Below are positions 13,478-51,045 of a DNA stretch of 64,000 bases, piece after piece. Within the stretch, counting starts at the first letter, position 1. Each line of letters begins with the position of its first letter. Under the pieces are notes generated by a model. It had not been told where the DNA came from. It made no database searches and was given only the letters and a program-made list of their open reading frames with translations. Source of the stretch: Escherichia coli (GTDB lineage Bacteria; Pseudomonadota; Gammaproteobacteria; Enterobacterales; Enterobacteriaceae). The stretch is taken from NCBI RefSeq assembly GCF_002854065.1, contig NZ_CP024147.1; one strand, 5' to 3'. The position numbers and the translations under genes are program-made.

Positions 13478-13554
13478 GCTATTTTTGATAGTTCTTGCGG
13501 CTAATATGCTCTATATAGTGATGTTCCGATGACTTATGACTATATGGGGCAAAT

Positions 13555-14670
13555 ATGGTTACGCCAGTAAGCATCAGCAATTACATATCTCTTCCTGATG
13601 ATTTTCCCGTTCGTAATATTGCACCGCAGGTAAAAGAAGTTTTAAAGGATTTTATTGATGCACTTAGTACAATAATATGTAATGAAGAGTGGCGCACGTC
13701 TTTAAACATCAACTCAGCCACAAAAAAGATATTTAATAACCTTGACAACTTATCATATATTCAGAGGACTTCTTTTCGGGGTAACGACACGCTATACAAT
13801 GAAAAGGTTCAGTTTAAACTCACTTATCCCGCCAGGAATGGAAGACACAAAGAAAATATTGAATTTCAGGTAGTAATAAATTTAAGTCCTATTTATTTAG
13901 ATAATTTCCGCCATGATGGAGAAATTAATATTTTTTGCGCTCCCAACCCAAAGCCTGTCACTATGGGGCGCGTATTTCAGACCGGCGTCGAGCGTGTGCT
14001 CTTTCTGTTTCTGAATGATTTTATTGAACAATTTCCAATGATAAACCCTGGCGTTCCCATCAAAAGAGCGCATACACCACATATTGAACCCCTGCCTCCG
14101 GATCACCATACCGCTGCAGATTACTTACGCCAGTTTGATTTGCTTGTCCTGAATTTTATCTCTCGCGGTAATTTTGTTATACTCCCCCGATTATGGAATA
14201 ACTCTGAGGTTCACAGATGGTTCGTCAATAAAGATCCTAACTTGATCACCGCCATTCTCGACATAACGGACAGCGAATTAAAAGAGGATTTATTGCAAAG
14301 CCTGATGGATTCATTAGGTTCTAACAAACATGTACTACCCGAAGTCTGCATCTGCTTTTTATCCCTTTTAGCAGAACAAGAATCTCCTCATTTTCAGGAC
14401 TTGTTTTTATTTTTCGCCAGTATGTTATTGCACTATCACCAATTTATGAATCCCAATGAAAGTGATTTGAATAACGTGTTGATGCCAGCATCATTAAGTG
14501 ATGATAAAATTATCAAACATATGGCGCGCAAGACCCTCAAACTTTTTGTAAAAAATAAAACACCGCCAAAAGTTACTCATGAAGACCTGGTGAAAAACAG
14601 GCCTCGCTCCCCTGTCAGACCACCTATACCCGCAACCTCCAAAACGCCAGACATTCCTGATCGTCATTAA
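13555..14670 (+). CDS. yneK: uncharacterized protein, AT-rich gene
   Basis: 371-aa ORF; noticeably lower G+C than neighbours. Confidence 0.7.
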   Translation: MVTPVSISNYISLPDDFPVRNIAPQVKEVLKDFIDALSTIICNEEWRTSLNINSATKKIFNNLDNLSYIQRTSFRGNDTLYNEKVQFKLTYPARNGRHKENIEFQVVINLSPIYLDNFRHDGEINIFCAPNPKPVTMGRVFQTGVERVLFLFLNDFIEQFPMINPGVPIKRAHTPHIEPLPPDHHTAADYLRQFDLLVLNFISRGNFVILPRLWNNSEVHRWFVNKDPNLITAILDITDSELKEDLLQSLMDSLGSNKHVLPEVCICFLSLLAEQESPHFQDLFLFFASMLLHYHQFMNPNESDLNNVLMPASLSDDKIIKHMARKTLKLFVKNKTPPKVTHEDLVKNRPRSPVRPPIPATSKTPDIPDRH

Positions 14671-20463: not shown

Positions 20464-20559
20464 ATGCTGGGTAATATGAATGTTTTTATGGCAGTACTGG
20501 GAATAATTTTATTTTCTGGTTTTCTGGCCGCGTATTTCAGCCACAAATGGGATGACTAA
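20464..20559 (+). CDS. mgtS: 31-aa small inner-membrane protein (MgtS/YneM-type)
   Basis: ATG CTG GGT AAT ... GAT GAC TAA translates to MLGNMNVFMAVLGIILFSGFLAAYFSHKWDD; too short for the ORF track. Confidence 0.8.
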   Translation: MLGNMNVFMAVLGIILFSGFLAAYFSHKWDD

Positions 20560-20586
20560 TGAACGGAGATAATCCCTCACCTAACC

Positions 20587-20625
20587 GGCCCCTTGTTACA
20601 GTTGTGTACAAGGGGCCTGATTTTT
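20587..20625 (+). terminator. intrinsic terminator after mgtS
   Basis: Stem GGCCCCTTGT/ACAAGGGGCC followed by TGATTTTT. Confidence 0.7.
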
Positions 20626-20635
20626 ATGACGGCGA

Positions 20636-20738
20636 AAAAAAACCGCCAGTAAACCGGCGGTGAATGCTTGCATGGATAGATTTGTGTTTTGCTTTTACGC
20701 TAACAGGCATTTTCCTGCACTGATAACGGATCGTTGAC
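20636..20738 (-). ncRNA. mgrR: candidate PhoP-dependent small RNA (MgrR-like), ~100 nt; ends approximate
   Basis: Minus-strand intrinsic terminator at 20635-20662 (CCGCCGGTTTACTGGCGG then U8) lies ~100 nt downstream of a PhoP-box-like direct repeat at 20768-20784; no ORF; location between mgtS and dgcZ matches the known mgrR locus. Ends are inferred, not mapped. Confidence 0.5.
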
Positions 20739-20767
20739 ACAGTAGCATCAGTTTTCTCAATGAATGT

Positions 20768-21668: not shown

Positions 21669-21922
21669 TGCCACTCCTTTTTCACAGTTCCTTGTGCGCG
21701 CTATTCTAACGAGAGAAAAGCAAAATTACGTCAATATTTTCATAGAAATCCGAAGTTATGATTCATCTCTGAGATAACATTGTGATTTAAAACAAAATCA
21801 GCGGATAAAAAATTGTTTAATTCTGTAAATTACCTCTGCATTATCGCAAATGAAAGGATGACAAATAGCATAACCCAGTACCCAAATGGCCCGGTAGTTC
21901 AGGCCATCAGGCTAATTTATTT

Positions 21923-22315
21923 TTATTTCTGCAAATGAGTGACCCGAACGACGGCCGGCGCGCTTTTCTTATCCAGACTGCCGCTAATGTTGATCATCTG
22001 GTCCGGCTGAACTTCTCGACCATCAAAAACGGCCGCAGGAATAACAACATTAATTTCACCGCTCTTATCGCGAAAAACGTAACGGTCATCTCCTTTGTGA
22101 GAAATCAAATTACCGCGTAGTGAAACCGAAGCGCCATCGTGCATGGTTTTTGCGAAATCAACGGTCATTTTTTTTGCATCATCGGTTCCGCGATAGCCAT
22201 CTTCTATTGCATGAGGCGGCGGTGGCGCTGCATCCTGTTTTAAACCGCCCTGGTCATCTGCCAACGCATAAGGCATGACAAGAAAACTTGCTAATACAAT
22301 GGCCTGAAATTTCAT
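21923..22315 (-). CDS. ydeI: periplasmic OB-fold (BOF/YgiW-family) stress protein
   Basis: 130-aa ORF with signal peptide [19 protein letters not shown]. Confidence 0.85.
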
Positions 22316-22590
22316 ACTAACTCCTTAATTGCGTTTGGTTTGACTTATTAAGTCTGGTTGCTATTTTTATAATTGCCAAATAAGAATGCTGCCAATTGTT
22401 ATAAGGCATTTAAAATCAGCCAACTAGCTGTCAAATATTCAGAGAATTTAACTCACTAAAGTTAAGAAGATTGAAGAGTCTTAAACATATTTTCAGAATA
22501 ATCGGATTTATATGTTTGAAAATTATTATATTGGACGAGCATACAGAAAAAGCAAATCACCTTTACATATTAAAGCGTGGACAAAAAACA

Positions 22591-28821: not shown

Positions 28822-30105
28822 TTACAGACTTCTGGAAGGTTGCGCAGCTCTTACAACACGCGGTTGATCTTCCGCAGCGTCTTCCAGTGCACTTAAATCA
28901 CGGTCTTTCACTTCTGGCATTTTCAGCGCAGAGATTAAACCAATCACTGAATATGCCATGATCATAATGGCGATTGGATACCAGGATTCCGTCATGGTGC
29001 AGAAAATACCTGCCAGGATAGGACCAAAACCGGAAGCGATAAGACCACCAATTTCTTTTGAAATAGCCATCCGGGTAAAGCGGTTTTTACAACCGAACAT
29101 TTCTGCCATGGTAATGTTTTCCAGAGCAAATAATCCCAGCACCGCACAGTTATGAATCACAATCAGTGCAACCATAATCGTGCTCGGGGCATAGCTTTTA
29201 TCTACGATGATAGAAAGCATTGGCCATGCCAGCACAATCGCGGAGGTATTCATAATAATATACGGGATCCGGCGACCAATTTTATCGGATAACCAACCAA
29301 GGAACGGAATGGTCATAAAGCCGAGAATCGAACTAATCATCAATGCATCTGTTGGAATTGCTTTGTTAAACAATAACGTCTGCACTAAATAGCCTGCAAG
29401 GAAAGTCTGAATTAACCCGGAGTTACCCGCCTGACCAAAACGCAGCCCTGTTGCCAGCCAGAAGGATTTGCTCTGGAACATGCTACCAGCAGGTGCAGGT
29501 TTTGCTGTCGGTTGGTTGCTGTCATTAACCTTCTCAAAGACCGGGCTTTCTTTCAGATTCATACGTAACCAGATAGCAAAGACCATCACGACAACGCTCG
29601 CCAGGAACGGTATACGCCATCCCCACGCCAGCAGTTCCTCTTTACTGAGAATGAAGAACATAAAGGCCCAGATTGCCGTTGCGCTCAAGGTTCCGCAGTT
29701 AGTTCCCATAGCTACAAATGAGGAGATAATTCCGCGCTTACCTTTTGGCGCATATTCCACCAGCATCGTACCGGCACCGGAAATTTCCGCACCTGCACCC
29801 AACCCCTGAATAATACGCAGCGTCACCAGCAAGATGGGGGCAAAAACACCAATCTGTGCATAGGTCGGTAACACTCCAATTAAGGTGGTACAGATCCCCA
29901 TCATGGTGATGGTAATAAAGAGCACTTTTTTACGCCCTATTCTGTCGCCCATTTTGCCGAAAATAAATGCTCCGACAATACGCGCCACATAACCTGCACC
30001 GTAGGTTCCCATTGCCAGAATTAACGCCATTGCCGTTGATGATTCAGGAAAAAATATTTCATGAAACACTAACGCTGCGCCGAGCGAATATAACTGGAAA
30101 TCCAT
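28822..30105 (-). pseudogene. ydfJ: MFS transporter gene ydfJ, 3' portion (427 codons); first ~28 codons displaced to 44890-44982 by prophage insertion
   Basis: ORF begins MDFQLYSLGAALVF...; the fragment at 44982-44890 encodes MTIEKHERSTKDLVKAAVSGWLGTALEFMDF, which joins in frame across the att core. Confidence 0.85.
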
Positions 30106-30706: not shown

Positions 30707-30820
30707 ATGAACAGCATACTGATAATCACTTCTCTCCTTATCATATTCAGCATTTTTAGTCATGCCCTAATAAAATTAGGGATTGGCATATCCAATAACC
30801 CAGACAAAACCGATGTATAA
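30707..30820 (+). CDS. candidate 37-aa hydrophobic small protein ([37 protein letters not shown])
   Basis: ATG at 30707 preceded by GAGG 4 nt upstream; single predicted TM helix; within a longer track ORF (30584..30820). Confidence 0.3.
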
Positions 30821-30888
30821 GTCAACATATCCTGAATCAGACATACAATATCGCAATGAAAATCAATAATATTTTAAGGAATATCTTC

Positions 30889-31122
30889 ATGAAATCAAAA
30901 GACACCCTAAAGTGGTTCCCTGCGCAGCTTCCTGAAGTAAGAATTATCCTAGGGGATGCTGTAGTGGAAGTAGCAAAACAGGGAAGACCTATCAATACCA
31001 GAACATTGCTTGATTACATTGAAGGAAACATAAAGAAAAAATCATGGCTGGATAACAAAGAATTATTACAAACAGCGATATCAGTTCTTAAAGACAACCA
31101 AAATTTAAATGGTAAAATGTAA
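30889..31122 (+). CDS. ydfK: small prophage protein (YdfK/YnaE family, cold-shock associated)
   Basis: ~77 aa from the ATG at 30889 (MKSKDTLKWFPAQLPEV...). Confidence 0.75.
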   Translation: MKSKDTLKWFPAQLPEVRIILGDAVVEVAKQGRPINTRTLLDYIEGNIKKKSWLDNKELLQTAISVLKDNQNLNGKM

Positions 31123-31438
31123 TATAATAAACTTACTTTTTTATCATTTTTCCACTTTAACAACATTTTGCTCCACTTTTCCACGAGCAAACAACTTGAA
31201 ATCTGGTTAAAATAACACGCAACACTATTCTTCTTCCTTGAGTCCGCCCGGAACTCGAAAAACAAACCGAGTTAAAGCCATTTTTCACAAAATCGATTTT
31301 GGGTCTCACCAAAGTTACGGGGTTGCATACGCATTCGTTTATTTTCGAACGTGTACATACAAATATGCACAAAAATAATCAAAATTATTTTCTGAGATGC
31401 ATTATGATATGAACACCAATTTCGTATAGAGTCTCACT

Positions 31439-32029
31439 ATGTCTCGAATTTTTGCTTACTGTCGGATATCAACGCTGGATCAGACCACCGAAAATCAACG
31501 CCGGGAAATCGAAAGTGCAGGTTTTAAAATCAAACCTCAGCAAATAATCGAAGAACACATTAGCGGCTCAGCAGCAACCAGTGAGCGTCCTGGTTTTAAC
31601 CGGTTGCTTGCTCGCCTGAAATGTGGTGATCAATTGATTGTGACAAAACTGGATCGCCTTGGTTGTAATGCAATGGATATCAGGAAAACAGTGGAACAAC
31701 TGACCGAAACAGGTATCAGAGTGCATTGCTTAGCATTGGGGGGCATTGACCTGACCAGTCCAACAGGAAAAATGATGATGCACGTAATTTCAGCAGTCGC
31801 TGAATTTGAACGAGACCTTTTACTTGAACGCACTCATTCCGGGATAGTAAGAGCCCGCGGCGCAGGGAAACGTTTTGGTCGACCACCTGTGTTAAATGAA
31901 GAACAGAAACAGGTGGTATTCGAACGAATTAAGTCAGGTGTAAGTATAAGTGCCATTGCCCGGGAATTCAAAACCTCGCGGCAAACCATTTTAAGAGCCA
32001 AAGCAAAACTTCAGACACCTGACATATAA
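31439..32029 (+). CDS. pinQ: serine-recombinase DNA invertase (Pin/Gin/Hin family)
   Basis: 196-aa ORF; N-terminal catalytic region YCRISTLDQ with the conserved serine; C-terminal HTH. Confidence 0.9.
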
Positions 32030-32126
32030 AAAATAATCTCGGTGTGAGATGCTTTACGTCTTCCAAGCCCCCTTCCTTGCCGTAAATGGAAAGATACATC
32101 TAATTATAGAATTTATATGTTTTACC

Positions 32127-32702
32127 CTACGGCAGTGCTGGCCATTCAATATCCTGTGCAGTTGACGTATCAACACGGTTCAGCAACACCCGATACTTTT
32201 TCCAGGCTTCCAGCAATGAGGTTTCTTCCTCCGTTGCGATTTCCAGATCTACAGCATCCTGAAGTGGCGCAATATGCTCACTGGCTACCTGCATCAGGCT
32301 GTTTTTTGTTTCTTCCGCCTCCCGGATCCGGAACAGTTTTTCTGCTTCTGCATCTTTCACCCAGGCTGTGCCGTTCCACTTCTGAAACTCCCCTTCCGGC
32401 GATAACCAGGTAACATTTTCCGGTAACGGACCGAGTTCAGAAATAAATAACGCGTCCCCTGACGCTACGTCATAAACCGTTTTACCCCGATGGTCTTCAA
32501 CGAGATGCCACGATGCCTCATCACTGTTGAAAACAGCCACAAAGCCAGCAGGAATATCTGGCGGTGCAATATCGGTACTGTTTGCTGGCAGACCTGTATG
32601 AGGCGGAATATATGCATCACCTTCACCAATAAATTCATTAGTTCCGGCCAGCAGATTATAAATTTTTATGGTCCGTGGTTGTTCACTCATTCTGAATGCC
32701 AT
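32127..32702 (-). CDS. tfaQ: tail fibre assembly protein (Tfa)
   Basis: 191-aa ORF of the lambda Tfa/Mu U type; start overlaps the stop of the upstream tail-fibre fragment. Confidence 0.85.
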
Positions 32703-33271
32703 TATGCAAGCCTCACAATATAGTTAAATGCGATGTTTTTGACGGTGTTTTCCGCGTTACCAGCAGCGTTAACGGTGATGGTGTGTCCATGTGAACCAAT
32801 CGCAACGGAGTGCGTATGAGCACCAATACCGACAGTATGTGCGTGTGCACCTGCGCTTGCAGCAGTGCCGGACAGTGAGTGGGTACTGGTATAATCCCAT
32901 TGAATATTTACACCAGTCGCATAATTTCCGATTGCAACGTAAATATCGTAAGTATCACCAGATGTATTGACCCAGGCAAAATTTGTAAACCCTGCCGATG
33001 TGCGCTGCCATAAAGCACCAGTAATCCCCTTCGGATTACCATTACCTGCACGCAAAACAAGTTCAGATATACCTGCCTGTTGAGGTGAACCGACGTTATA
33101 TCCAGCCCCACCAATCAACGTAATTGAAACAACAGAACTCGCCTGCGGCATGGTTACCGTTGCTAATTTGAACCAACCAGCACCACCGCTGAATGACATT
33201 GTTGTTGAGTTAAGCGTACCAATATCTTTCGGTGTCAGTGTTATATCCGCTGAAAGCGCCTTACCATTCAC
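32702..33271 (-). pseudogene. stfQ: side tail fibre, C-terminal fragment only
   Basis: 189-codon ORF with tail-fibre-tip-like C-terminus ([22 protein letters not shown] repeats); no ATG, in-frame stop 6 codons upstream at 33290-33292. Confidence 0.75.
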
Positions 33272-33275
33272 CTTA

Positions 33276-33401
33276 CGGGCAGAAGGTATTCACGCAGGGA
33301 AAATATCTTTCCCCCTCCGGTGTTCTCACCACGAAGCCGCACGACTCCGCTGGCGCACATCGCCGGGCGTGCGCCAGAATCGCTGATTCTGTCTCTGTCA
33401 T
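33276..33401 (-). pseudogene. N-terminal stub (42 codons) of lambda K-like tail assembly protein
   Basis: Minus-strand translation [38 protein letters not shown] then TFCP-stop; near-identical to the lambda K N-terminus as I recall it, then divergent. Confidence 0.7.
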
Positions 33402-33406
33402 GGGAT

Positions 33407-34105
33407 TCACTGCGAAAGTTTGTTAATGGAAAGGAAGCCGCCAAAGTTGCCGACGTTATTGCGAAACTTACAGCCGCTCAGGCATTTGCTGCATTTATCC
33501 TTCGTGATATCGGACGTCGGCTGATCATATTCATCCGCGACCGCCGGACCGTGATAACCGCACTCATCACCGCGATAGGTCCAGGTGCAGGTGTTGGCCA
33601 GCATGATACGTCCCGGAAAAACGGCACCGTCCGTTTCCGTCGGCGTGGACAGTACAAAAGAGGCACTGACCGCGCTCAGTTCGCTGCACTGCTCGATGCG
33701 CCAGCGGCTGATCACCTCCTGCTCCGGATCGGCGTCACTGTTTCCGTTGACGAAGTTCACCGCATCCAGAAAACGGGCGTAAACCTTACGCCGGACCACC
33801 GTTCCTCCGACCAGACTCTGCAGGTCTTCCGCCATCCCGGTGACCATGCCGTGCAGGTTAGAAACCGTCAGTGTCGGACGGGCAGCACTGCCTTTGCCGT
33901 TCAGTTCAAATCCCGTCCCCTGAATGGGATACGCCTGATACTGTCGCCCCTGCCAGGTGACCGGCTCACCTTTATCGTTCTGCTCATTACAGAAAAAGTA
34001 GCGTTCCCCGCCTACCTCGGTCAGGTCGATTTCCCAGAGCACCACCTGGGCTGACTGAGTGAGGCGTGTCGTCTCATGATGTGTTTCCTGTGGAATATCC
34101 TGCAT
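33407..34105 (-). CDS. minor tail protein L (lambda L homologue)
   Basis: 232 aa, same length as lambda L; position between M and K. Confidence 0.85.
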   Translation of the reverse strand: MQDIPQETHHETTRLTQSAQVVLWEIDLTEVGGERYFFCNEQNDKGEPVTWQGRQYQAYPIQGTGFELNGKGSAARPTLTVSNLHGMVTGMAEDLQSLVGGTVVRRKVYARFLDAVNFVNGNSDADPEQEVISRWRIEQCSELSAVSASFVLSTPTETDGAVFPGRIMLANTCTWTYRGDECGYHGPAVADEYDQPTSDITKDKCSKCLSGCKFRNNVGNFGGFLSINKLSQ

Positions 34106-34114
34106 CAGAGACTC

Positions 34115-34444
34115 CTATGCCACGACCTGTTCAAAATCTGCCGTTATGGTTACCCACAACGCCCCCACGCTTGCCGACCATTTACGACAAACCACCCTGA
34201 TCGGCTTCCAGTCATAAGGTGGCGTCCACTGAAATGCGCGGACGCCACCGTGCCGTTCCAGAAAGGCTTTTAAAGATGGGTGTTCACATTTACGAACACG
34301 TATAGTCACGCTGTAAATCGACAACTGGTTATTCAGTCCCGCCGCACGACGCTGTTCATAACCATCGCCCAGCTTCACTGTCACCACTTTCGGCTCTGAT
34401 ACCACATTCATATCCGGGCGCACTTTCCAGTGAAACGTCTCCAT
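34115..34444 (-). CDS. minor tail protein M (lambda M homologue)
   Basis: 109 aa; METFHWKVRPDMNVVSEPKV... closely resembles lambda M. Confidence 0.85.
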   Translation of the reverse strand: METFHWKVRPDMNVVSEPKVVTVKLGDGYEQRRAAGLNNQLSIYSVTIRVRKCEHPSLKAFLERHGGVRAFQWTPPYDWKPIRVVCRKWSASVGALWVTITADFEQVVA

Positions 34445-36618
34445 TACCGATATGCTCCACTTAACCGACCACCATCACGGGCCTGCTGTTGCATAAAGTC
34501 CGCTGCCGCTTTTTTCCCAAGGTCATAAACCACCTTCAGGGCAGCCGGACCTATCTGCCCGTTCGTGCCATCGTTATTGATCTCGATGTTGTACTGCGGG
34601 GCAAACATCGCCATACCTGAACCACCAATATCCGCCACAACCCCCAGCTTACCGTCAGCACCACGACGCAGTGGCAGAATGGCTTCAGGTCCAGCTTCCC
34701 CCATCACACCCGCGCCTTTTGCAAAAGCAAAAAACGTCGGACGGTTAACCACCGTGCCACTGTAACGACTCAAATCAGCAGACTGATAAATCCCCCCATT
34801 GGCATTCAGGGAAAGGCTGCTGAGATCAAATCCCAGTACACTGCCAATCCCTTTTATCGATTTCATCATGGTTGCCTGCGCCAGGATTTTCGCCATATCT
34901 GACAGCACCGAAGAGGTGAAGGATTTGAAGTTGAGTTTGCCGGTAGTGACAAAAGTTGCCAGGCCATTTCCCATGTTGCTGAAGGCTGATGAGAACACCT
35001 GTTCTGCTGTTCCTGCCGTATTGTCTGCATCCACGGTAAAATCCTGAAATGCACGCAGGACTCCGTTTTTCCAGTTACCCTGCACAACTTCAAGCTGTTG
35101 CCAGTAACGGCGATTCTCATTCAGTTGTCGGTTCAGGCTCTCCGTCAGCGCCTGCTCGGCCTTTCTGTAGTCATCCGTGTTATATGTCCCTTTCTGCTCA
35201 CTATCCCGCCTCAACTGCTCCAGCTGTTGCTGGTATTTCTGGCGAAGACTCAGTTGTACCTGATATCGCTGCCGCTGCTGATCACCCATACCCACCGTGG
35301 CGATATCCAGGTCATGTTGCTGACGCTGAGCGCGCTCTTCTTCAGCCAGTTGACTGGTCAGCTGAATTGTTTTTTTCTTCAGATCGTTGAGTGCCGTCTG
35401 TTTCTGAAGCTCCTGCTGTTTTACATCCAGCAGCGTCAGTGCCTGAATCAGTTCATCTTTACGGGCCAGCACACTCTTTTCATCTGCCGTCAGTTTTTTC
35501 CCGTCCAGATCGCTGATGCGCTGCTGCAGAGCCAGAAGCTGTTTATGCGCTTCTGTCATCTTTTCAGTGGCAATGCCTGCTGACTGTCTTGCAGCAGCAA
35601 TCTGTCCTTCCACCTGTGCCTGTTGCTGACTGTACTGCAGCAATAACCGGGTGGCCTCATCATTACGGGGTTCGCGTGTTTTTTTCTTACCGGATGCCAG
35701 GGCTTTCTCGTAACGTTCATTTTCACGTTGTATCGCCGCATCCCTGACAGCCTGATCGGCGTACTGCATGGCATTAATACGCGCAATTTCACGCTGATGT
35801 CGTGCTGCTTCCGTTTCATTCATCCGGTTCAGTGCAGCATTTTCAGCATTACGGCGTTTCTGTTGCTCCTGATAATTCCGCTCTGCCTGCTCTTTTGCAT
35901 CCTGCAAATCCTTCTGGCGTTTTTTCTCCTGAAGCTCGTTAAGACGCTGCTGATCGTACTCAACCTGAGAAGATGATGCCGTCCAGGGGAGTCTTTTCAC
36001 CCGCGACACTTTCTCCTGTAAAGCGGAAATCTGTTCATCCAGCGAGTCTTCACGACCAATATTCATGGCCGCATCCCAGAAACGACTCCATAAATCAGAC
36101 AGATACTTCAGCGTACTGCCCAGCGCATTGAGGTTATTATCAATATCCGCAGTACGCCGACCGGTTTCCTCTGCCAGTGCAGACATGGCTATCCGTGCCG
36201 CATCACTGGACCGCCCCTGTTCCCCAAGGACGCGTATCTGTTCAAGCTGAGTGGCAGTAAGAAAATGCAGCTCATTGTCCAGAGCCTTCGCGGCATTTAC
36301 AGGATCATCCTTCAGCCGCTTAAACTGATTTATGGTATCGCTGACCGACTGGCCAACCGATCGCTCCATCTGTGCGGCAGCTCTCGCCACCATACGGGAT
36401 GGATCATGAACAGAGTCTGCTGCCTCATGCTTCACACTAAACAGGGCTGGCCCGACATGGTGCAGGGCGTAAACGGGGTTCCCCCTGACAGTCGCAGCCA
36501 CAGGAGTGTTGGCCGCGAGGAGCCGTTTTTTTACTGTGTCCCGGTGAAGCCCAAAGGCCTCAGCGATTTTAAAAACACTCCAGTAATAAGCATCACCGAT
36601 CCCGCTCACATTTGACAT
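34444..36618 (-). CDS. chimeric ORF: Nu1-like terminase small-subunit N-terminal DNA-binding region fused to lambda H-like tail tape measure (central and C-terminal parts)
   Basis: C-terminus INNDGTNGQIGPAALKVVYD...RDGGRLSGAYR matches the lambda H C-terminus; glutamine-rich coiled-coil middle; N-terminal ~100 aa has a Nu1-like winged-HTH pattern; ATG at 36618 has GGAG 6 nt upstream (track ORF extends to 36648). Confidence 0.7.
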   Translation of the reverse strand: MSNVSGIGDAYYWSVFKIAEAFGLHRDTVKKRLLAANTPVAATVRGNPVYALHHVGPALFSVKHEAADSVHDPSRMVARAAAQMERSVGQSVSDTINQFKRLKDDPVNAAKALDNELHFLTATQLEQIRVLGEQGRSSDAARIAMSALAEETGRRTADIDNNLNALGSTLKYLSDLWSRFWDAAMNIGREDSLDEQISALQEKVSRVKRLPWTASSSQVEYDQQRLNELQEKKRQKDLQDAKEQAERNYQEQQKRRNAENAALNRMNETEAARHQREIARINAMQYADQAVRDAAIQRENERYEKALASGKKKTREPRNDEATRLLLQYSQQQAQVEGQIAAARQSAGIATEKMTEAHKQLLALQQRISDLDGKKLTADEKSVLARKDELIQALTLLDVKQQELQKQTALNDLKKKTIQLTSQLAEEERAQRQQHDLDIATVGMGDQQRQRYQVQLSLRQKYQQQLEQLRRDSEQKGTYNTDDYRKAEQALTESLNRQLNENRRYWQQLEVVQGNWKNGVLRAFQDFTVDADNTAGTAEQVFSSAFSNMGNGLATFVTTGKLNFKSFTSSVLSDMAKILAQATMMKSIKGIGSVLGFDLSSLSLNANGGIYQSADLSRYSGTVVNRPTFFAFAKGAGVMGEAGPEAILPLRRGADGKLGVVADIGGSGMAMFAPQYNIEINNDGTNGQIGPAALKVVYDLGKKAAADFMQQQARDGGRLSGAYR

Positions 36619-36798
36619 AAGCAACTCCATCTGGCAGGTGAAAATCATGTTTATTTATATATTTCAATTAATTGCAAACTGGTCTAATGACAGGGAGAAA
36701 AAAATATTGTACAGGTGAAAAGAGAAATAACTTTTAATTATCAATAAATTACCAAACATGCTGCCGCCGCCATGGAAATGCAAAAACTAGCCTTTTTC

Positions 36799-36818
36799 CG
36801 CGACGCTCCCGCCCCGTG
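36799..36818 (-). other. lambda-like cos (cosN-like) sequence ~180 bp upstream of the Nu1-like start
   Basis: Minus strand reads ACGGGGCGGGAGCGTCGCGG, close to the lambda cosN region ACGGGGCGGCGACCTCGCGG as I recall it. Confidence 0.55.
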
Positions 36819-37182
36819 GCAGGGGCCCCCACCGGGAGGACCCGACAGCCTGACAGCCGTGACGAGCATCTGATACAGCGCTTTACATAATGGCATAGGA
36901 ATAATTCAGAAGGACATCACAGCATGCCCACACAAATTAGTGTGAGTGTCCTGTTTCTTCCTACGCACAGGACTGACGAGCATGAGGGGAAAATATGCGA
37001 ACCATAAATGCCTCATCTTCAGCAATGCAGCCGGCATCCGAACAGGACGATATTGTAAATTCACCTAATTACGAGGACATTGCAGTAGTTGAATTGCAGC
37101 TCTGTATTAGCCTGACAGTGACAGAATGCGATACTGACTCTGTCACAGGTGAAATAGTTTGAATGATTAGCAGTTATGGTGC

Positions 37183-37389
37183 TCAGTCAACCACCAGGGA
37201 ATAATCCTTCGAATTCTTATCGTGCTTCACCAACGCTGCCTCAATTGCCCTGAATGCTTCCAGAGACACCTGATGTTCTATACATGCAATTACAACATCC
37301 GGGTAACTCATAGAAATGGTGCTATTAAGCATATTTTTTACACGAATCAGATCCAACGAGAGTTCATCAGCAGATTGTTCTTTATTCAT
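37183..37389 (-). CDS. small uncharacterized prophage protein
   Basis: 68-aa ORF in the AT-rich moron region divergent from ydfO. Confidence 0.5.
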
Positions 37390-38905: not shown

Positions 38906-39098
38906 TTTTAAATCCAACGACAGACGGCTGGCATTTAAGTATTGTGAAATATTATCAAATGTAATCATCATTGATTTACAAAAGATACATTTTGCCCCGA
39001 AAGGATTCATGTCAGAAACATCAAAAGATGATGTTCTATACTGGGAACCATGACAACACGGGCATCTAAAGTGAATATGGTTTGTAATATTGTCTACC

Positions 39099-39311
39099 TC
39101 AAAGCGCCACTACATGAACAGCGGCAGGACCTTTAGGTCCGTTCTCAATACCAAATTCAACTTCCTGATTCTCAGTTAATGTTTTGAAATCGTTGCTCTG
39201 AATTGCTGAGAAATGGACAAACACATCTTTGCTGCCATCTTTCGGCGTGATGAAACCAAAACCTTTTTCAGGGTTAAACCATTTCACTAAACCAGTCATT
39301 TTGTTAGACAT
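39099..39311 (-). CDS. cspI: CspA-family cold shock protein
   Basis: 70 aa, [23 protein letters not shown]... with RNP1/RNP2 motifs. Confidence 0.9.
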
Positions 39312-39673
39312 AATTATTACCTTTTGAAGAAATTAGCCCTTGGGCAGAATGGTCCGAAAAAAAATATCAGAGAGAAAAACCAACAAGGAAATCCCAAGAG
39401 GTACAAATAATAAAATTATAACAATGACTGCTTCAGATAAATTTGTAACAAACCAGAACACCATTAACGCATGATTAACCACCCATAGCAAGGATTACTT
39501 TTGTAAAGAAAAACACAGCAATGAAAGAATAGCTTTATTTATTAATAAAACGTGTCATTCTGATTAAGACCTTTTATCTTACCCTTAAGATTTCAGGAAT
39601 TTTGGCTCATGGAAGAGTCCTTTTTATTTAAATTTTACATTCCGCGATGTAAATGTTCCGATTTAATATTACC

Positions 39674-41703: not shown

Positions 41704-41983
41704 AGATTGTGGTGCTTTTTGTGGGAGTCATCCACTTACGCACTTTGTTTTGCCATGCCAGCAGTTAGCTTCTGCTGTAAAACTATTCATGCCGCAAACC
41801 TGCACTTCACCACAATGGTTAGCATACTTTTCCTGATTAAGATTTTGCCAAATATGCTGGCCATTGTTTCATGTATTGGACCTCCTTAATTTTTATTAAA
41901 GAAATCCAATATTCACTACTCTGTCCGTATCTCTACTCAGGCATCAGCCTTCTTCGTTATCGTATACAGACGAGCGATGAATT

Positions 41984-42199
41984 TTAATCAGTAATGATGA
42001 CATTTGCTGCTGCAGGACCTTTAGCACCACTCTCTATAGAGAAGGTAACCTTTTGACCTTCAAATAAGGTTCGATAATTATCATTCTGAATCGCAGAAAA
42101 ATGCACAAACACATCTTTACTACCATCAACAGGAGAAATAAAGCCGAAACCTTTATCAGCGTTAAACCATTTTACTAAACCAGTCATTTTATTTGACAT
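41984..42199 (-). CDS. cspB: CspA-family cold shock protein
   Basis: 71 aa, [23 protein letters not shown]... Confidence 0.9.
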
Positions 42200-42490
42200 T
42201 CTACATTCCTTAACTTGAGCCTTTCGGCATAAATGGTTTGCATAACAGAAACGACTTCGTACTTAATTGGAGAGACTCAAAGAAGGAATAAGTGAATAAC
42301 ACCTGAAATGAGAACTGCTTTAGTAAACTACTTCGTATATCGTCTGTTCTTCAAACCGACGCAGTCATTAACTCATAGTTGAACATATGAAGCAATGTTT
42401 ATTTTAGACATCCAGCCACCTTCAACCCTATCAAAAAAGTAGTTTTCTCCAGGAACGTGTGTATGGTGCACCAGGTTATCAGTATTAAGG

Positions 42491-42874: not shown

Positions 42875-44516
<1,642 letters not shown>

Positions 44517-44852
44517 GTTTTTCAACCTGAAGTGTCAGCGAGAGTAAAAAATTATGGTGACCATTTTACCGTTGACTCAATAAGGCAGATGTGGGACGCA
44601 GCGATAAAACGTGCCGGACTCCGCCATTGAAAATCATATCAGTCGAGACATACTTATGCCTGCTGGTCGCTGACAGCTGGTGCTAACCCGGCATTTATAG
44701 CAAACCAGATGGGCCATGCAGATGCGCAAATGGTATTTCAGGTATACGGAAAATGGATGTCTGAAAACAATAATGCACAGGTAGCTTTGTTAAATACACA
44801 GTTAAGCGAGTTTGCCCCAACCATGCCCCATAACGAAGCAATGAAAAATTAA
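44517..44852 (+). pseudogene. intQ: tyrosine integrase C-terminal remnant with an in-frame stop
   Basis: Frame reads ...WDAAIKRAGLRH-stop(TGA 44628-44630)-KSYQSRHTYACWSLTAGANPAFIANQMGHADAQMVFQVYGKWM...; begins at the IS right end, ends 38 bp before attR. Confidence 0.65.
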
Positions 44853-44889
44853 TTTAATATTTATCAAATAGTTGACACGTATGACTCTT

Positions 44890-44904
44890 GAAATCCATAA
44901 ATTC
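44890..44904. repeat. attR core
   Basis: GAAATCCATAAATTC, direct repeat of 30097-30110. Confidence 0.75.
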
Positions 44905-44982
44905 AAGCGCAGTGCCCAGCCATCCCGATACTGCTGCTTTCACCAAATCCTTAGTGCTTCTTTCGTGTTTTTCTATTGTCAT
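44890..44982 (-). pseudogene. ydfJ: ydfJ 5' fragment (first ~28 codons) displaced by the prophage
   Basis: ATG at 44982; MTIEKHERSTKDLVKAAVSGWLGTALEFMDF then phage sequence. Confidence 0.8.
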
Positions 44983-45039
44983 AATGGTTATCTCTAAAAA
45001 AGAGGTAAGATGCGTACTACTTACTCGCCGTTATTGGTA

Positions 45040-46059
45040 TTATTCAGAAAAAGTGAGTAAGACTTTGCAGCAATGTTTTTGATCCTGTTCAAATAAACTA
45101 ATGGCATCAGCAACATGCTGGAAATCAAACGTATGGGTAATTAATTTTTCTGGTTTAATTAACCCTTTACTTAACCAGTCGATAACGACCGGAAATTTAT
45201 TTGCATTTAAGCGTGAAGAGAAAATAGATAGTTCTTTTCCGGTAATTCCTTGCTGAATCACTTCAGAAGGTTCACTGGAGAAGCCCATCAATACAATACG
45301 TGCCGCTGGAGAAGCCAGCGTTACGGCCTCTTTCAGGATAGAAGGATGACAAGCCGCATCAATAATTAATGTCGGCTTTATGCCTTTTTCAGCGAAAATC
45401 TCGCCAAGCGGTGTCTGGCTGTTATTAATCACCCAGTCAGCCCCGCTCTCTTTCGCTTTTTCCAGTCGTTCATCAATGCGATCGGCAACAATCACATTTT
45501 TAACGTTATAGACGCCTTTTAATACCTGAACGATCGTCAGGCCGATTGGACCGGCACCGTAAACCAGAACGGTATCATTTTCAGTCGGTTGACCATGACC
45601 GGTTACGTTAGCCGCAATGGTAAAAGGTTCGATCATCACCGCATATTGATCGGCCACTGCTTCAGGAATTTTCCACGCATTTTTTGCCGGAACCACAGCA
45701 TATTCACTGAAACCACCGTCAGCGTGCACACCTAATACAGCGAGTGTCGTACAAACGTTCGGCTTACCTATAGAGCACGGATAGCAATGACCACAGCTGA
45801 CCACCGGATCGACAGCAACACGTTCACCGACTCTGGCGCTTTCCACACCTTCACCCACCACATCAATGACGCCAAAGAATTCATGTCCAATGACGCGCGG
45901 ATATTTCGCAAAAGGATTATGCCCACGATAAATATGGCTATCTGAACCACAAATTCCGGCAAGTTTCACTTTTACTCGTACTTCACCCGCTGACGGGGTG
46001 GGTATTTCACGTTCGACAATCGCCAGTTGATTCGGTTTTTCAATTAATATGCTTTTCAT
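45040..46059 (-). CDS. rspB: zinc-dependent alcohol-dehydrogenase-family protein (starvation-sensing operon)
   Basis: MDR motifs (GHEFFGVI, GAGPIGL); ~339 aa from the ATG at 46059. Confidence 0.9.
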   Translation of the reverse strand: MKSILIEKPNQLAIVEREIPTPSAGEVRVKVKLAGICGSDSHIYRGHNPFAKYPRVIGHEFFGVIDVVGEGVESARVGERVAVDPVVSCGHCYPCSIGKPNVCTTLAVLGVHADGGFSEYAVVPAKNAWKIPEAVADQYAVMIEPFTIAANVTGHGQPTENDTVLVYGAGPIGLTIVQVLKGVYNVKNVIVADRIDERLEKAKESGADWVINNSQTPLGEIFAEKGIKPTLIIDAACHPSILKEAVTLASPAARIVLMGFSSEPSEVIQQGITGKELSIFSSRLNANKFPVVIDWLSKGLIKPEKLITHTFDFQHVADAISLFEQDQKHCCKVLLTFSE

Positions 46060-46070
46060 TATCTTACTCC

Positions 46071-47285
46071 TTACCAGTTCCACAGCGTGCCATCTTCCAG
46101 ACGTGCGACTGGTAGATAAGCAGGTTCATAGGGATATTTCGCCGCCAGCTTTTCATCGAATTCGATGCCAAGACCCGGTTTGTCTCCCGGATGCATATAG
46201 CCGTTATCGAAAGTCCAGTTGTGCGGGAAGACTTCGAGCATTTGTTCGGAATAACCCATGTATTCCTGGACACCGAAATTGGGGACCCACAGATCAAAGT
46301 GCAGCGCTGCAGCCATGCAGACTGGTGACAAATCGGAAGGACCGTGTGAGCCAGTACGTACCTGATACAGCGAAGCAAAATCGGCAATCCGGCGCATACC
46401 GGTAATTCCGCCTGCATGGGTCAGCGTGGTGCGGATATAATCGATGAGTTGCTCTTCAATCAGTTGTTTGCAGTCCCAGATGCTGTTGAAGACTTCACCC
46501 ACTGCGATGGGTGTGACGGTATGTTGGCGAATGAGACGGAAGCATTCCTGGTTTTCCGCAGGCGTCGGGTCTTCCATCCAGAACATGCGATAATCTTCAA
46601 TGCTTTTACCAAAGCGCGCCGCTTCAATAGGCGTTAAGCGATGGTGCATGTCATGCAGCAAATGTTCATTAAAACCAAACTTGTTACGTACCGCGTCAAA
46701 CAATTTCGGCATGAAATCGAGGTATTTCTCCGTCGACCACAGCTGCTCTTCCGGCCACTGTCCTTTGGTTGCGGGTTCATAAGCCAGACCTTTACCTTTC
46801 GACATGCCGTAGGTGGTTTTCATACCAGGGATTCCGCACTGCACGCGGATGGCTTTGAATCCCAGCTCCTGATGACGGGCATAATCATCCAGAGCTTCAT
46901 CAATACTGTGACCGGTGGTATGGCAATAAACCATCACCCCTTCACGAGACGCGCCGCCGAGTAACTGGTAAAGCGGCATGTTGGCAGCTTTGGCTTTAAT
47001 ATCCCACAGCGCCATATCAACCGCTGAAATAGCCGACATCGTAACCGGACCGCGACGCCAGTAAGCACCTTTATAGAAAAACTGCCAGATATCTTCGATA
47101 CGGTGCGCATCGCGACCAATAAGCTGCGGACAAAGGTGATCCTGCAAATAAGAGGCCACGGAAAGCTCACGTCCATTGAGGGTGGCATCCCCAAGGCCCG
47201 TAATACCGTCCTCAGTGGTGATTTTTAATGTGACGAAATTACGCCCCGGACAGGTAACAAAAACTTCAGCCTTTACGATCTTCAT
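46071..47285 (-). CDS. rspA: enolase-superfamily mannonate-dehydratase-like protein
   Basis: ~404 aa from the ATG at 47285; overlaps or abuts rspB. Confidence 0.9.
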
Positions 47286-47491
47286 GTTCGATTCCTTGCA
47301 TCGCTTGTCGTGATGCATGAAATCTACGCAACTGAGCTACTACCATACAAGTATGAGGATCAAAAAAAGCCGGAGTGATCACAAAAAAAAGGCGTATATT
47401 TTCGCCATGAATGGTTGACAAAAGATGAAATAGAGTACCTTTTATCAGCTGACGCTTCCTCGTATCTTATTGATAAAATAGATTTATGTCC

Positions 47492-47818
47492 TTACGTGCG
47501 CCCCCAGCCGGCAACAATGATCAACATGCCGCAAAGCGCAATCAACGCCCCCGTCCAGTCATAAAGACTCAGTTTCACGCCATCCACAACGCGCAGCCAC
47601 ATCAACGCCGTGCAGACATAAACGCCACCATAAGCCGCGTAAACACGCCCACTCGCCGCAGGATGCAACGTTAACAACCAGACAAACAGCGCCAGTGAAA
47701 TCCCCGCCGGAAGCAACAGCCAGATACTGGCGTTTCGTTTTAACCACAACCAGGGCAGAAAGCATCCAATAATTTCACACAGCGCAGTAGCAAAAAATAG
47801 TAACGTTGTTTTAATCAT
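47492..47818 (-). CDS. ynfA: UPF0060 small membrane protein
   Basis: 108-aa ORF with four predicted TM helices. Confidence 0.85.
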
Positions 47819-47952
47819 CTTTGTCTCTTATTGACATCATGTATAGTTATAGGGCGACATAATATCATCAATATAAACACCCTCCTGGTACGTTTTGCGT
47901 CCGCAGTGGATGGTGTAGAATCACCTTTAATCATTCATACAGGGAATGAATT

Positions 47953-48889: not shown

Positions 48890-49174
48890 CATTAATAATA
48901 ATCGATCGTATTTTTGATGGTGTAAACCCGTTCGACGGCGGGTTTTACTCCTTCATCAACAATGATCAGCTGACAGTCCACTGGATTGGCGTGACTGTCA
49001 TATTCACAGCTCTGTTTTACATTACCAACCCGTTGATTGTTCAGTAAAGTAACCGCTGTGTAATCTAATTTTTTGATCGGATCCGTTGATGGCGTGGCGC
49101 TGACAGATAATGTTTTGTCGTTACTTTTCGTGGTTTTACCCAGCGGATACCCCTGATCATCATTGGATTTGCCC

Positions 49175-50080
49175 CTATATTTCCAGACATCTGTTATCAC
49201 TTAACCCATTACAAGCCCGCTGCCGCAGATATTCCCGTGGCGAGCGATAACCCAGCGCACTATGCGGATGCCATTCGTTATAATGCTCGAACGCCTCTGC
49301 AAGGTTCTTTGCTGCCGTTAACCCGTCTGGTTTGGGCATGATACTGATGTAGTCACGCTTTATCGTTTTCACGAAGCTCTCTGCTATTCCGTTACTCTCC
49401 GGACTCCGCACCGCCGTGTTCTTCGGTTCAAGTCCCAACATCCGGGCGAACTGGCGTGTTTCATTAGCCCGGTAGCATGAACCATTATCCGTCAGCCACT
49501 CCACTGGAGACGACGGAAGATCGTTGCCGAAGCGGCGTTCCACCGCTCCCAGCATGACGTCCTGTACTGTTTCACTGTTGAAGCCGCCGGTAGTGACCGC
49601 CCAGTGCAGTGCCTCACGATCACAGCAGTCCAGCGCGAACGTGACACGCAGTCTCTCTCCGTTATCACAGCAGAACTCGAACCCGTCAGAGCACCATCGC
49701 TGATTGCTTTCTTTCACGGCCACTCTGCCTGTATGTGCCCGTTTCGATGGCGGTACAGCAGGTTTTCGCTCAAGCAACAGCGCATTCTGGCGCATGATCC
49801 GGTAAACACGTTTGGCATTGATCGCAGGCATACCATCAAGTTCTGCCTGTCTGCGAAGCAGCGCCCATACCCGACGATAACCATACGTGGGCAGCTCTCC
49901 GATAACATGGTGTATACGGAGAAGCACATCCGTATCATCAGTGTGACGACTGCGGCGGCCATCCATCCAGTCATCGGTTCGTCTGAGAATGACGTGCAAC
50001 TGCGCACGCGACACCCGGAGACAACGGCTGACTAAGCTTACTCCCCATCCCCGGGCAATAAGGGCGCGTGCGCTATCCAC
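49175..50080 (-). CDS. insD: IS2 transposase OrfB (InsD-type)
   Basis: 301-aa DDE transposase ORF overlapping insC. Confidence 0.9.
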
Positions 50081-50403
50081 TTTTTTGCCCGTCCATATTC
50101 AACGGCTTCTTTGAGGAGTTCATTTTCCATCGTTTTCTTGCCGAGCAGGCGCTGGAGTTCTTTAATCTGCTTCATGGCGGCAGCAAGTTCAGAGGCAGGA
50201 ACAACCTGTTCTCCGGCGGCGACAGCAGTAAGACTTCCTTCCTGGTATTGCTTACGCCAGAGAAATAACTGGCTGGCTGCTACACCATGTTGCCGGGCAA
50301 CGAGGGAGACCGTCATCCCCGGTTCAAAGCTCTGCTGAACAATTGCGATCTTTTCCTGTGTGGTACGCCGTCTGCGTTTCTCCGGCCCTAAGACATCAAT
50401 CAT
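50038..50403 (-). CDS. insC: IS2 OrfA (InsC-type)
   Basis: [56 protein letters not shown]... Confidence 0.9.
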
Positions 50404-51045
50404 CTGTTCTCCAATGACTAGTCTAAAAACTAGTATTAAGACTATCACTTATTTAAGTGATATTGGTTGTCTGGAGATTCAGGGGGCCAGTCTAATCATA
50501 GCGATATTCCATCTGCATCTGTTTGCTGCTGGCTTTAATCACGAAGCCATTATCATCGGTTTCCCAACTCACCCCGGCAGAAGGTAATTCTGCTAGCTGG
50601 CATTTTCCCTGTAAACGTACTCTCTTCTCCAGCGTCTCGGCATCACGGTAATAATTGGCGTCCAGTACCAGAGCGACCACGGTATTATTTTCCAGATCCA
50701 GTAATTCGAGTGAATCAAAACAGCCTTCTTCCGACAAAGTCCCCGAAACACGTTTCGTCACTTCACCTTGCTCATCCATTAATGTCTGAGTGAAATCTTT
50801 TACCGGACCACGCAGCGGATCAAAATCGAATTCATTAGAGAAACTGGCCATCTCAGGAGTAAATGAAAGTGTTACCTCTGTGCGGTCACATCCTGTGAGT
50901 AATATCGCGAGTAAGCATGGCAGTAATTTGTATTTCACATCAGTCACCAGAGAGTAGAGATGATTCTCAATCATAGTAGCAAATACAGTACTTTACACGT
51001 TAAATGCTATGCTTAAAGAAGTTATCTTCGCGTAAGGAGCTTATG

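Follow-up and report, generated by a model that had tools for sequence, protein, structure and literature searches.

A Qin-type lambdoid prophage remnant at ydfJ of Escherichia coli with deleted tail genes and an intact pinQ

The P segment of e14 and its invertase Pin, with their relatives G/Gin of phage Mu and C/Cin of phage P1, place a small serine invertase beside tail-fibre and tfa genes. In e14, two inverted 26-bp pix sites, CTCTCGAAAACC TT GGTTTGGGAGAA and TTTTCATAAACG TT GGTTTGGGAGAA, flank two opposed cassettes, each of an stf end and a tfa gene, and the start of pinE adjoins the segment. A pix-type site has the form TTCTCCCAAACC NN GGTTT... In E. coli K-12, the invertase PinQ acts in trans to invert the P segment of e14, and the chimeric tail fibre that PinQ produces there blocks adsorption of T2; PinR is reported to be 99% identical to PinQ (PMC12529663).

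Qin- and Rac-type elements also have invertase genes beside their tail-fibre genes. In the Rac prophage of K-12, stfR-tfaR-pinR has the same module and orientation as the locus described here; stfR is full-length at 1120 codons, and the loss of tail genes upstream falls at another point (ynaA/lomR with IS5). In the Qin prophage of K-12 (ydfJ'-ynfT-ydfK-pinQ-tfaQ-stfQ-nohA...), stf is truncated: a fragment of 320 codons is joined to nohA, and H, M, L and K' are all gone. Intact versions exist as well. The prophage of NCTC8623, at the Qin locus, and the viable phages 2H10, mEp460_ev081, Turner and PhiR42_1 have pin, tfa and the 3'-end of stf at 98-99.5% identity to ours and the same convergent layout of pin and tfa. 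In NCTC8623 and 2H10, the two analysed closely, K, I, J and lom are complete and stf has its full length of 986-1117 codons.

Here we describe a related locus in a 64,000-nucleotide stretch of E. coli DNA (contig NZ_CP024147.1), which we call the window. The order of genes at 31439-34105 is pinQ(+), tfaQ(-), a start-less 3' fragment of stf (32702-33288), a stub of K (33287-33401) and L (Table 1). This stretch is 100% identical to the RefSeq chromosome of E. coli strain 100416 (NZ_CM128593.1), where PGAP already annotates K' and stf' as pseudogenes. The window is not strain 100416 throughout: BLAST with the whole window found differences in an IS2 and in the rspAB/intron region, the part where strain 100416 has a group II intron.

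Table 1. Features of the Qin-type element in the window (strand as in the sequence analysed;. denotes no strand)
Feature	Position	Strand	Basis or remark
ydfJ', host transporter gene cut by the prophage; left edge of the Qin-type element	28822..30105	-	PGAP 'missing N-terminus'; same gene borders K-12 Qin
ydfK (cold-shock protein), cargo gene upstream of pin	30889..31122	+	order ynfT-ydfK-pinQ also in K-12 Qin and phage 2H10
pinQ, intact serine DNA invertase, 196 aa	31439..32029	+	phrog_125 'DNA invertase', E = 2e-69
pin-tfa intergenic spacer, contains first proposed arm (32072-32095)	32030..32126	.	crossover site: none found
tfaQ, intact tail-fibre assembly gene, 191 aa	32127..32702	-	phrog_105, E = 4e-100, full length; WP_000885595.1
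Rfam IS009 (RF02111), within tfaQ 3' half	32161-32359		227 bits
stf', side-tail-fibre 3' fragment, no start codon	32702..33288	-	PGAP pseudogene 'missing N-terminus'
Internal stf' deletion scar (approximate), in-frame 612 bp	32884..32885	.	BLAST block boundaries
K'/stf' deletion joint, dinucleotide TA	33287..33288	.	parent and junction sequences side by side
K', lambda-K-type tail-tip gene, 38 codons + 4 out-of-frame codons + stop	33273..33401	-	PGAP pseudogene 'missing C-terminus'
Gene L, minor tail protein, intact	33407..34105	-	TIGR01600, 329 bits (cut-off 70.75)
Gene M, minor tail protein, intact	34115..34444	-	phrog_14, E = 7e-40
Terminase-small::tape-measure fusion ORF	34444..36648	-	phrog_141, residues 6-88; phrog_24, residues 85-734

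The insertion in ydfJ, with a 5'-truncated ydfJ adjoining ynfT-ydfK-pinQ-tfaQ, matches K-12 Qin in gene order and in the PGAP notes. Site, order and orientation from ydfJ' through tfaQ are the same in both, and the PinQ proteins are 98% identical (193 of 196 residues). On the right side, a fragment of quuQ lies beside an IS3-family transposase and rspB comes next; no integrase was seen there. The element lacks I, J, lom and the head genes, retains K', stf' and H' only as pseudogenes, and is defective for particle formation and excision. We read the region as an ordinary part of a Qin-type lambdoid prophage in decay at ydfJ.

An earlier note on this DNA, made from the sequence alone, had described the tail-fibre module as a remnant, and in this it was right. 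The peptide encoded at 33401-33288(-) resembles the N-terminus of lambda K, as the note had it (minor-tail-protein PHROGs, E = 3e-23 to 1e-15), and its DNA is 98.7% identical to the intact K-L-M-H block of strain 120899. It ends four codons past the similarity, with TFCP followed by TAA at 33275-33273. The K tail-tip protein ('C40 family peptidase', MPN/JAB plus NlpC/P60) has about 247 aa in full and two catalytic domains; here only residues 1-38 are present, homology ending at K nt 115, whereas intact relatives reach 744 nt. The stf reading frame at 32702-33271(-), for which the note saw no plausible start, opens with GTG and has no usable ribosome-binding site; the in-frame stop seen upstream is a TGA (33290-33292) separated from the GTG by six codons. 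Against the stf of NCTC8623, stf' aligns as two blocks of 98.5-98.6% identity, which cover codons 588-722 and 927-986 of the 986 codons in the intact allele. The N-terminal tail-attachment domain and long shaft are accordingly missing (codons 1-587 of 986 are absent). The His-rich C-terminal end beside tfa is retained: over its last 60 codons and the stop, stf' is 98.6% identical to the intact allele, and the end matches phrog_295 at profile positions 740-794 of 794.

Relative to the intact elements, 7.2 kb are missing: everything in K after codon 38, all of I, J and lom, and codons 1-587 of stf. The loss of K(3'), I, J and most of stf had been anticipated; that of lom is additional. The junction, placed earlier at about 33276-33290, maps to 33287/33288, within that range. 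The TA at the joint occurs in both parents, at nt 114-115 of K and nt 1761-1762 of stf, a clean 2-nt overlap. Judged from these alignments, K'/stf' is evidently a remnant made by deletion. A single deletion of about 7.2 kb removed the whole block, probably by short-homology illegitimate recombination, and joined the ends out of frame at the common TA. Because of this frame, K' stops after four foreign codons and stf' is left start-less. Neither a tail fibre nor a tail tip can be made. An adjacent deletion mediated by an IS was considered and rejected, there being no IS at any joint.

Two further deletions, absent from the earlier note, were found in the neighborhood. The first is an in-frame gap of 612 bp within stf' at about 32885. 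BLAST blocks 32000-32885 and 32884-33288 map to 12601-13486 and 14097-14501 of the compared locus L004, respectively. The part lost contains ...PIPWPSDTVPSGYALMQGQ..., and in L004 a 9-nt direct repeat, ATACCAGTA, flanks the part that stf' lacks. The gap leaves stf' without the 204 codons that precede its last 60, and only strain 100416 gives a match in one piece across about 32885. A second loss took an internal part of what remained of stf. The other is at about 36395, where the N-terminus of the terminase small subunit is fused to the tape measure: the terminase part (residues 6-88 of the fusion ORF) is in frame with the tape measure from about profile position 400 to its end. The alignment with an intact H gene breaks off at 36395, and PGAP flags the tape measure as 'missing N-terminus'. 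A third deletion fused the two genes.

With the losses set out, the window and K-12 Qin can be compared directly. The window, unlike K-12 Qin, keeps terS'::H'-M-L-K', and K' is joined to a shorter, internally deleted stf'; against NCTC8623 and 2H10 it lacks the 7.2 kb and the further 612 bp. The window and K-12 Qin carry independent deletion alleles of one element. Other independent alleles are the stfQ'::nohA of K-12 itself, I'::stf' (EC21Z-048, CFSAN004176) and K'::stf (PEC41, 101EVA, FCI56, EC596). The many independent deletion alleles of the tail-fibre module mean that its decay is common. We are confident that the locus is the late-operon end of a Qin-type prophage at ydfJ decaying by deletions, with pinQ and tfaQ intact and pinQ devoid of a local substrate. 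Nothing in the evidence contradicts the deletion reading.

Could the remnant have been kept for a function? By analogy with StfE2, Stf', made through stop-start coupling, might form with TfaQ and PinQ a module for phage defence or receptor masking. The TAA that stops K' is followed, 1 nt on, by the GTG of the 189-aa stf' frame, so the fragment could be made by reinitiation; tfaQ and pinQ are intact, and the T2-blocking chimera of K-12 (PMC12529663) offers a precedent. On the other hand, the exact joint is present in only one of 5426 complete genomes, and the fragment has neither its N-terminal part nor the internal 204-codon stretch. Breakpoints and reading frames differ in neighboring alleles, and promoter and ribosome-binding-site signals are not above background. 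We regard such a retained function as very unlikely.

The position of a serine invertase next to tail-fibre genes raises another question, namely, whether pin-tfa-stf' is an invertible switch like those of e14, Mu and P1, either degenerate or still working. The earlier note had offered as possible crossover sites a short inverted similarity between 32072-32095 and 33268-33290; both arms contain TTACGG..GAAGG and the second abuts the deletion joint. The recombinase itself is of the right kind, a small invertase-type serine recombinase (phrog_125, 38% identity to PinE, N-terminal motif present), and pin at 31439-32029 does adjoin tfa and so directly flanks the tfa/stf' segment, as had been noted. 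The proposed arms did not hold up. Their local alignment scores 14 against 12.4 +/- 2.0 for shuffled sequence, 510 of 2000 shuffles scoring as high, and a repeat search of the same 1.6 kb gave many chance pairs that are equally good. They match e14 pix at only 11-13 of 26 positions, and the best match of the pin-tfa spacer to e14 pix is 12-13, below the best of 16-18 of 26 reached by chance in shuffled copies of the 64-kb window. A search with the gix/hix/pix consensus, a check that the note had recommended, found no match with up to three mismatches in the 64-kb window, and no pair of inverted 26-bp sites flanks the segment. By inspection, the peptide that a true pix site encodes, ...NLGLGEG..., is absent from intact Qin-type Stf.

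The arrangement of the genes also speaks against a switch. A single tfa and a single stf end are present here, in the intact locus and in 2H10, without an inverted alternative cassette. In switches of the Din family a Fis-dependent enhancer sits within the 5'-part of the invertase gene, near a crossover site. The 5'-end of pinQ points away from tfa/stf' and its 3'-end faces the segment, the opposite of e14; the window has none of the e14 arrangement of sites, opposed cassettes and adjoining invertase start. Among the 3357 complete genomes that matched a chimeric query for the flipped state, none covered it fully, the best matches being to its pin-flank half. Since the convergent layout, with a single tfa and stf end, is normal in viable phages, the adjacency of pin and tfa is ancestral and not a product of decay, and the suggestion that it is a relic of an invertible switch is not supported. 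We consider a local switch close to refuted and extremely improbable.

Two other readings of the joint fare no better. One is that the assembly collapsed repeated prophage sequences into each other, which comes to mind since K, L and stf recur from prophage to prophage and draft contigs are often interrupted within K. But the joint recurs base for base in the chromosome of strain 100416, which appears to be a separate genome sequence because it differs from the window in IS2 and rspAB/intron, and the joint has unique sequence on either side with its clean overlap; there is hardly any chance that it is an artefact. That the K stub and stf meet at an ancestral gene boundary or at a mosaic joint of functional phages is the least credible of all. 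Although K ends at the same nucleotide in several unrelated prophage remnants, the order in the intact ydfJ-site prophage of NCTC8623 and in phage 2H10 is K-I-J-lom-stf-tfa and then pin, every viable or intact relative examined has the complete genes K, I, J, lom and stf between the two points, both parents run past the joint in relatives at 98-99% identity, and the exact joint is as rare as stated above.

If the locus is a deletion remnant, what can its intact invertase do? Its tail-to-tail position with tfa is the normal one in this phage family. PinQ has no local substrate here. Any activity in the present strain would probably be in trans, on pix-type sites at other places in the genome, in the way K-12 PinQ acts on the e14 P segment. 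When the chromosome of the near-identical strain 100416 was searched with e14 pix flanks for an e14-type P segment as trans substrate, no further match appeared; that strain is only a proxy here, the window differing from it in places. PinQ may thus be without any substrate in the present lineage.

Finally, the K endpoint recurs. Rare deletion alleles end in K at nt 115 (three), nt 117 (one) and nt 124-125 (two), each with a different partner, up to 7 kb away, and an overlap of 0-4 nt. Two of the three nt-115 events are in-frame K(1-38)::Stf fusions, one of them an ORF of 662 aa. The spot lies in an unpaired spacer between two predicted DNA hairpins. These alleles suggest a deletion-prone spot near K nt 115. 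That K nt 115-125 of lambdoid prophages is a genuine hot spot, directed by sequence or structure, is a tentative proposal that we consider somewhat unlikely; stalled replication with a subsequent template switch, or a nick at a specific site, would agree with it. Scans of metagenomes and IMG/VR for sequences that match K over nt 94-115 and depart from it at the next base returned two chance matches and one copy of the EC596 type only. Draft contigs that end at K codon 39 (P0002, 66 contigs) were not counted in support, because they reflect SNP forks between co-resident prophages and contigs also end at many other K positions. Two candidate causes were set aside: recombination by Pin at quasi-sites, rejected by eye, the 12 nt on each side of the TA being unlike pix half-sites; and a Chi-like octamer, TCTGGTGA, just 3' of the joint, which is an imperfect match and, on that side, could not protect the end that was kept.

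Alone, the region matters little: it adds a further deletion allele to those of a cryptic prophage that is already well known. For annotation, pinQ beside tfa should not be taken as a local invertible switch. The PinQ-type invertases of Qin- and Rac-type elements would have no substrate in cis and, where active, would work in trans. The series of alleles at ydfJ (intact, the present one, FCI56, PEC41, 101EVA and K-12) gives a stepwise picture of Qin decay. Should the repeated K endpoint prove real, it would show in nature how a deletion hot spot shapes the decay of prophages.

The feature is an ordinary scar, left by a deletion in a Qin-type prophage that is decaying. It is real and correctly located, and its fragments are already marked as pseudogenes in RefSeq. 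The region is the left end of the cryptic prophage Qin, as in K-12. In a megablast search of 5426 complete E. coli genomes, 31400-34200 and likewise 30800-37200 were found with 100% identity in a single record, NZ_CM128593.1, which is strain 100416. Its annotation there reads ydfI, ydfJ (N-terminus missing), ynfT, ydfK, pinQ and tfaQ, then a hypothetical protein missing its N-terminus and another missing its C-terminus, and finally L, a phage tail protein and a tape measure protein (N-terminus missing). The window is a close relative of 100416, differing from it in places (44030-47846 and 49164-50494): where the window has rspA and rspB, 100416 has a group II intron maturase flanked by pieces of IS3, and the window's IS2 is missing from 100416. 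Because of these differences, the joint at 33287/33288, where the K stub (K') meets the stf fragment (stf'), is present in seemingly two separate genome sequences, which counts against an assembly artefact.

On its right (42875-44508), the Qin remnant closes with a fragment of the antiterminator gene quuQ that abuts an IS3-family element, with rspB directly after it. As the prophage ends in this way (quuQ', IS3-family transposase, rspB), its early region and integrase are gone. The two thermoregulator leaders inside the remnant correspond in position to cspI and cspB.

Coordinates of features in and around the Qin remnant
Feature	Position	Strand	Remarks
sRNA STnc560	20553-20766	-	upstream, core sequence
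pin	31439-32029	+	196 aa; sequence reading and ORF listing of 31200-34200
pin-tfa spacer	between 32029 and 32127		97 nt
tfa	32127-32702	-	191 aa; ORF listing
Rfam IS009 (RF02111)	32161-32359	-	227 bits, gathering score 117
stf-frame ORF (stf')	32702-33271	-	GTG start; ORF listing
45-codon ORF (K')	33273-33410	-	38 K-like residues, then TFCP and stop
L	33407-34105	-	ORF listing
M	34115-34444	-	ORF listing
734-codon ORF	34444-36648	-	ORF listing
cspA-type thermoregulator leader	39072-39457	-	inside Qin remnant
cspA-type thermoregulator leader	41968-42360	-	inside Qin remnant
Rfam isrC match	43327-43449		within IS3-family element
IS3-family transposase	43462-44508
rspB	45040-46083
rspA	46071-47318
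IS2 tnpB	49175-50080
IS2 tnpA	50038-50448

The earlier note had described a truncated K-like gene beside a start-less stf end, and the ORFs, the GTG and the in-frame TGA (33290-33292, six codons from the GTG) agree with that account. Family searches class pin as a DNA invertase and tfa as a tail-fibre assembly protein of full length, and L scores above the TIGR01600 cut-off; stf' matches the middle and C-terminal parts alone of tail-fibre profiles, and K' matches minor-tail profiles over positions 1-38 only. At 33269-33275 (- strand) the sequence is TAAGGTG, with one base between the K' stop TAA and the GTG opening the 189-codon stf' ORF; translation of stf' by termination-reinitiation from the K' stop is conceivable. 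The IS009 match is entirely contained in the 3' half of tfaQ, RF02111 being a catalogued candidate RNA that overlaps this coding sequence.

The size of the loss is given by strain NCTC8623 (L004), whose prophage occupies the same site in ydfJ, is intact and runs pinQ, tfaQ, stf (986 codons), lom, J, I, K (744 nt), L, M, H, T, G, V. Three blocks align to it: 32000-32885 to L004 12601-13486 (98.6%), 32884-33288 to 14097-14501 (98.5%) and 33284-34141 to 21730-22577. Hence the window lacks L004 14502-21732 (7.2 kb), which carries codons 1-587 of stf, the genes lom, J and I, and the part of K that begins at codon 39. The reading of the module as a remnant is thus borne out; beyond the deletion envisaged in the earlier note, lom is also gone. 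For the K-L-M-H block, strain 120899 is a closer relative (98.7% identity, 33284 to 36395). With the parents compared side by side, the joint reads ...CCCTGCGTGAA-TA-CCTTCTGCC..., the TA at 33288-33287 being common to K (nt 114-115) and stf (nt 1761-1762). Since the fusion is out of frame, K' runs on into four foreign codons and stf' is left without a start. An exact 22-nt K match from beside the joint (TATTCACGCAGGGAAAATATC) also occurs in two JGI metagenome contigs (L009 3846-3867, L010 2259-2280) with no other tail-gene similarity, and was taken as a chance match in a very large collection.

Two further scars are present. A further 612 bp is missing in frame from stf' at ~32884-32885, corresponding to L004 codons 723-926 (204 codons, distal part). 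In the long allele this part is flanked by a 9-nt direct repeat, ATACCAGTA; among the 5426 genomes only strain 100416 matches across ~32885 in one piece. The start of the 734-codon ORF (residues 6-88) matches the terminase small subunit; the rest (residues 85-734) matches the tape measure, beginning near position 400 of the profile, and homology to an intact H gene ends at 36395. This ORF is an in-frame terminase-small/tape-measure fusion, the scar of a second large deletion (joint ~36395) that removed the head genes and proximal tail genes.

The alternative, that pin acts on degenerate crossover sites at ~32072-32095 and ~33268-33290, found no support. The alignment of the two arms scores 14, where shuffled sequences give 12.4 +/- 2.0 (510 of 2000 equal or exceed it), and a repeat search gave many pairs as good. 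The K-12 e14 crossover (pix) sites, CTCTCGAAAACC-TT-GGTTTGGGAGAA and TTTTCATAAACG-TT-GGTTTGGGAGAA, lie 1797 nt apart and encode ...NLGLGEG... in stfP. The arms agree with pix at 11-13 of 26 positions, where the best in shuffled 64-kb sequences is 16-18, and the gix/hix/pix consensus has no match at <=3 mismatches within the 64 kb. A chimeric query for the flipped state, in which the inverted stf' end follows the 3' flank of pin, reached 80% coverage in none of the 3357 genomes with any match to it; the best-scoring matches fall in the pin-flank half. In e14 the pix sites flank two opposed stf-end/tfa cassettes and the pinE start adjoins the segment. Phage 2H10 has one tfa and one stf end, in the order K-I-J-lom-stf-tfa followed by convergent pin, ydfK, dinI, int and xis. 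Phages Turner, PhiR42_1 and mEp460_ev081 share the pin-tfa-stf stretch (98-99.5% identity). From these layouts, the pin/tfa adjacency is the normal arrangement of the phage family. On all these points together, pin belongs to no local switch.

The window PinQ is identical to K-12 PinQ at 193 of 196 residues and 38% identical to PinE. According to Kirigo et al. (Nucleic Acids Res 2025, PMC12529663), K-12 PinQ acts in trans to invert the e14 P segment of 1797 bp, creating StfE2, which blocks T2 adsorption; they also find PinR, PinE and PinQ all active on this segment. A query extended with the two e14 pix flanks matched 6 places in the 100416 chromosome, the same as without them, so that no e14-type substrate is detectable there at megablast sensitivity.

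One of the 5426 genomes carries this exact joint, but other broken forms of the module are numerous: nohA joined to stfQ' (K-12), I'::stf' (EC21Z-048 and CFSAN004176), a K' of 657 nt adjoining the stf N-terminal part (PEC41), K' (nt 87)::stf (101EVA), K'::stf' (FCI56) and, at the DLP12 locus, K'::stfR' (EC596 and two sheep strains). In the last type, the K stub and StfR codons 512-1120 form an intact in-frame ORF of 662 codons (L003 11310-13289, L024 3747-5735), carried by EC596, two sheep isolates and one IMG/VR contig.

Three joints end K at nt 115, with different partners: stf nt 1763 in the window (overlap TA, out of frame), stf nt 1620 in FCI56 (TA, in frame) and stfR nt 1532 in the EC596 type (ATA, in frame, the 662-codon ORF). 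A protein search with the stub yielded three more near-identical endpoints: K nt 117 with gene I nt 178 in HVH 101 (overlap TATC), K nt 125 with a J fragment in one contig and ~K nt 124 in another; the sample is small, and its protein-based part is biased towards short stubs. Overlaps across the joints are 0-4 nt. Those outside the window lie at L002 8642-8643, L003 13175-13177, L022 ~1838-1840, L027 ~4125 and L028 ~4124 (comparison sequences). Draft contigs ending at K codon 39 were excluded, since such ends are SNP forks and occur all along K. Between any two of the nt-115 and nt-117 alleles, the L+K' blocks differ at 19-44 of 817 positions, and that of the window is one base from the block of a contig whose K runs past nt 115; independent events are therefore favoured over shared descent. 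In the predicted ssDNA fold (MFE -17.5 kcal/mol, z -2.9) the joint falls within 11 unpaired nt that separate a GGGAAA/TTTCCC hairpin from the foot of a larger stem-loop, and a stall-and-switch origin of the endpoint would be plausible. K nt 115-125 may be a deletion hot spot, and this recurrent endpoint is the sole item that might merit a proper census.
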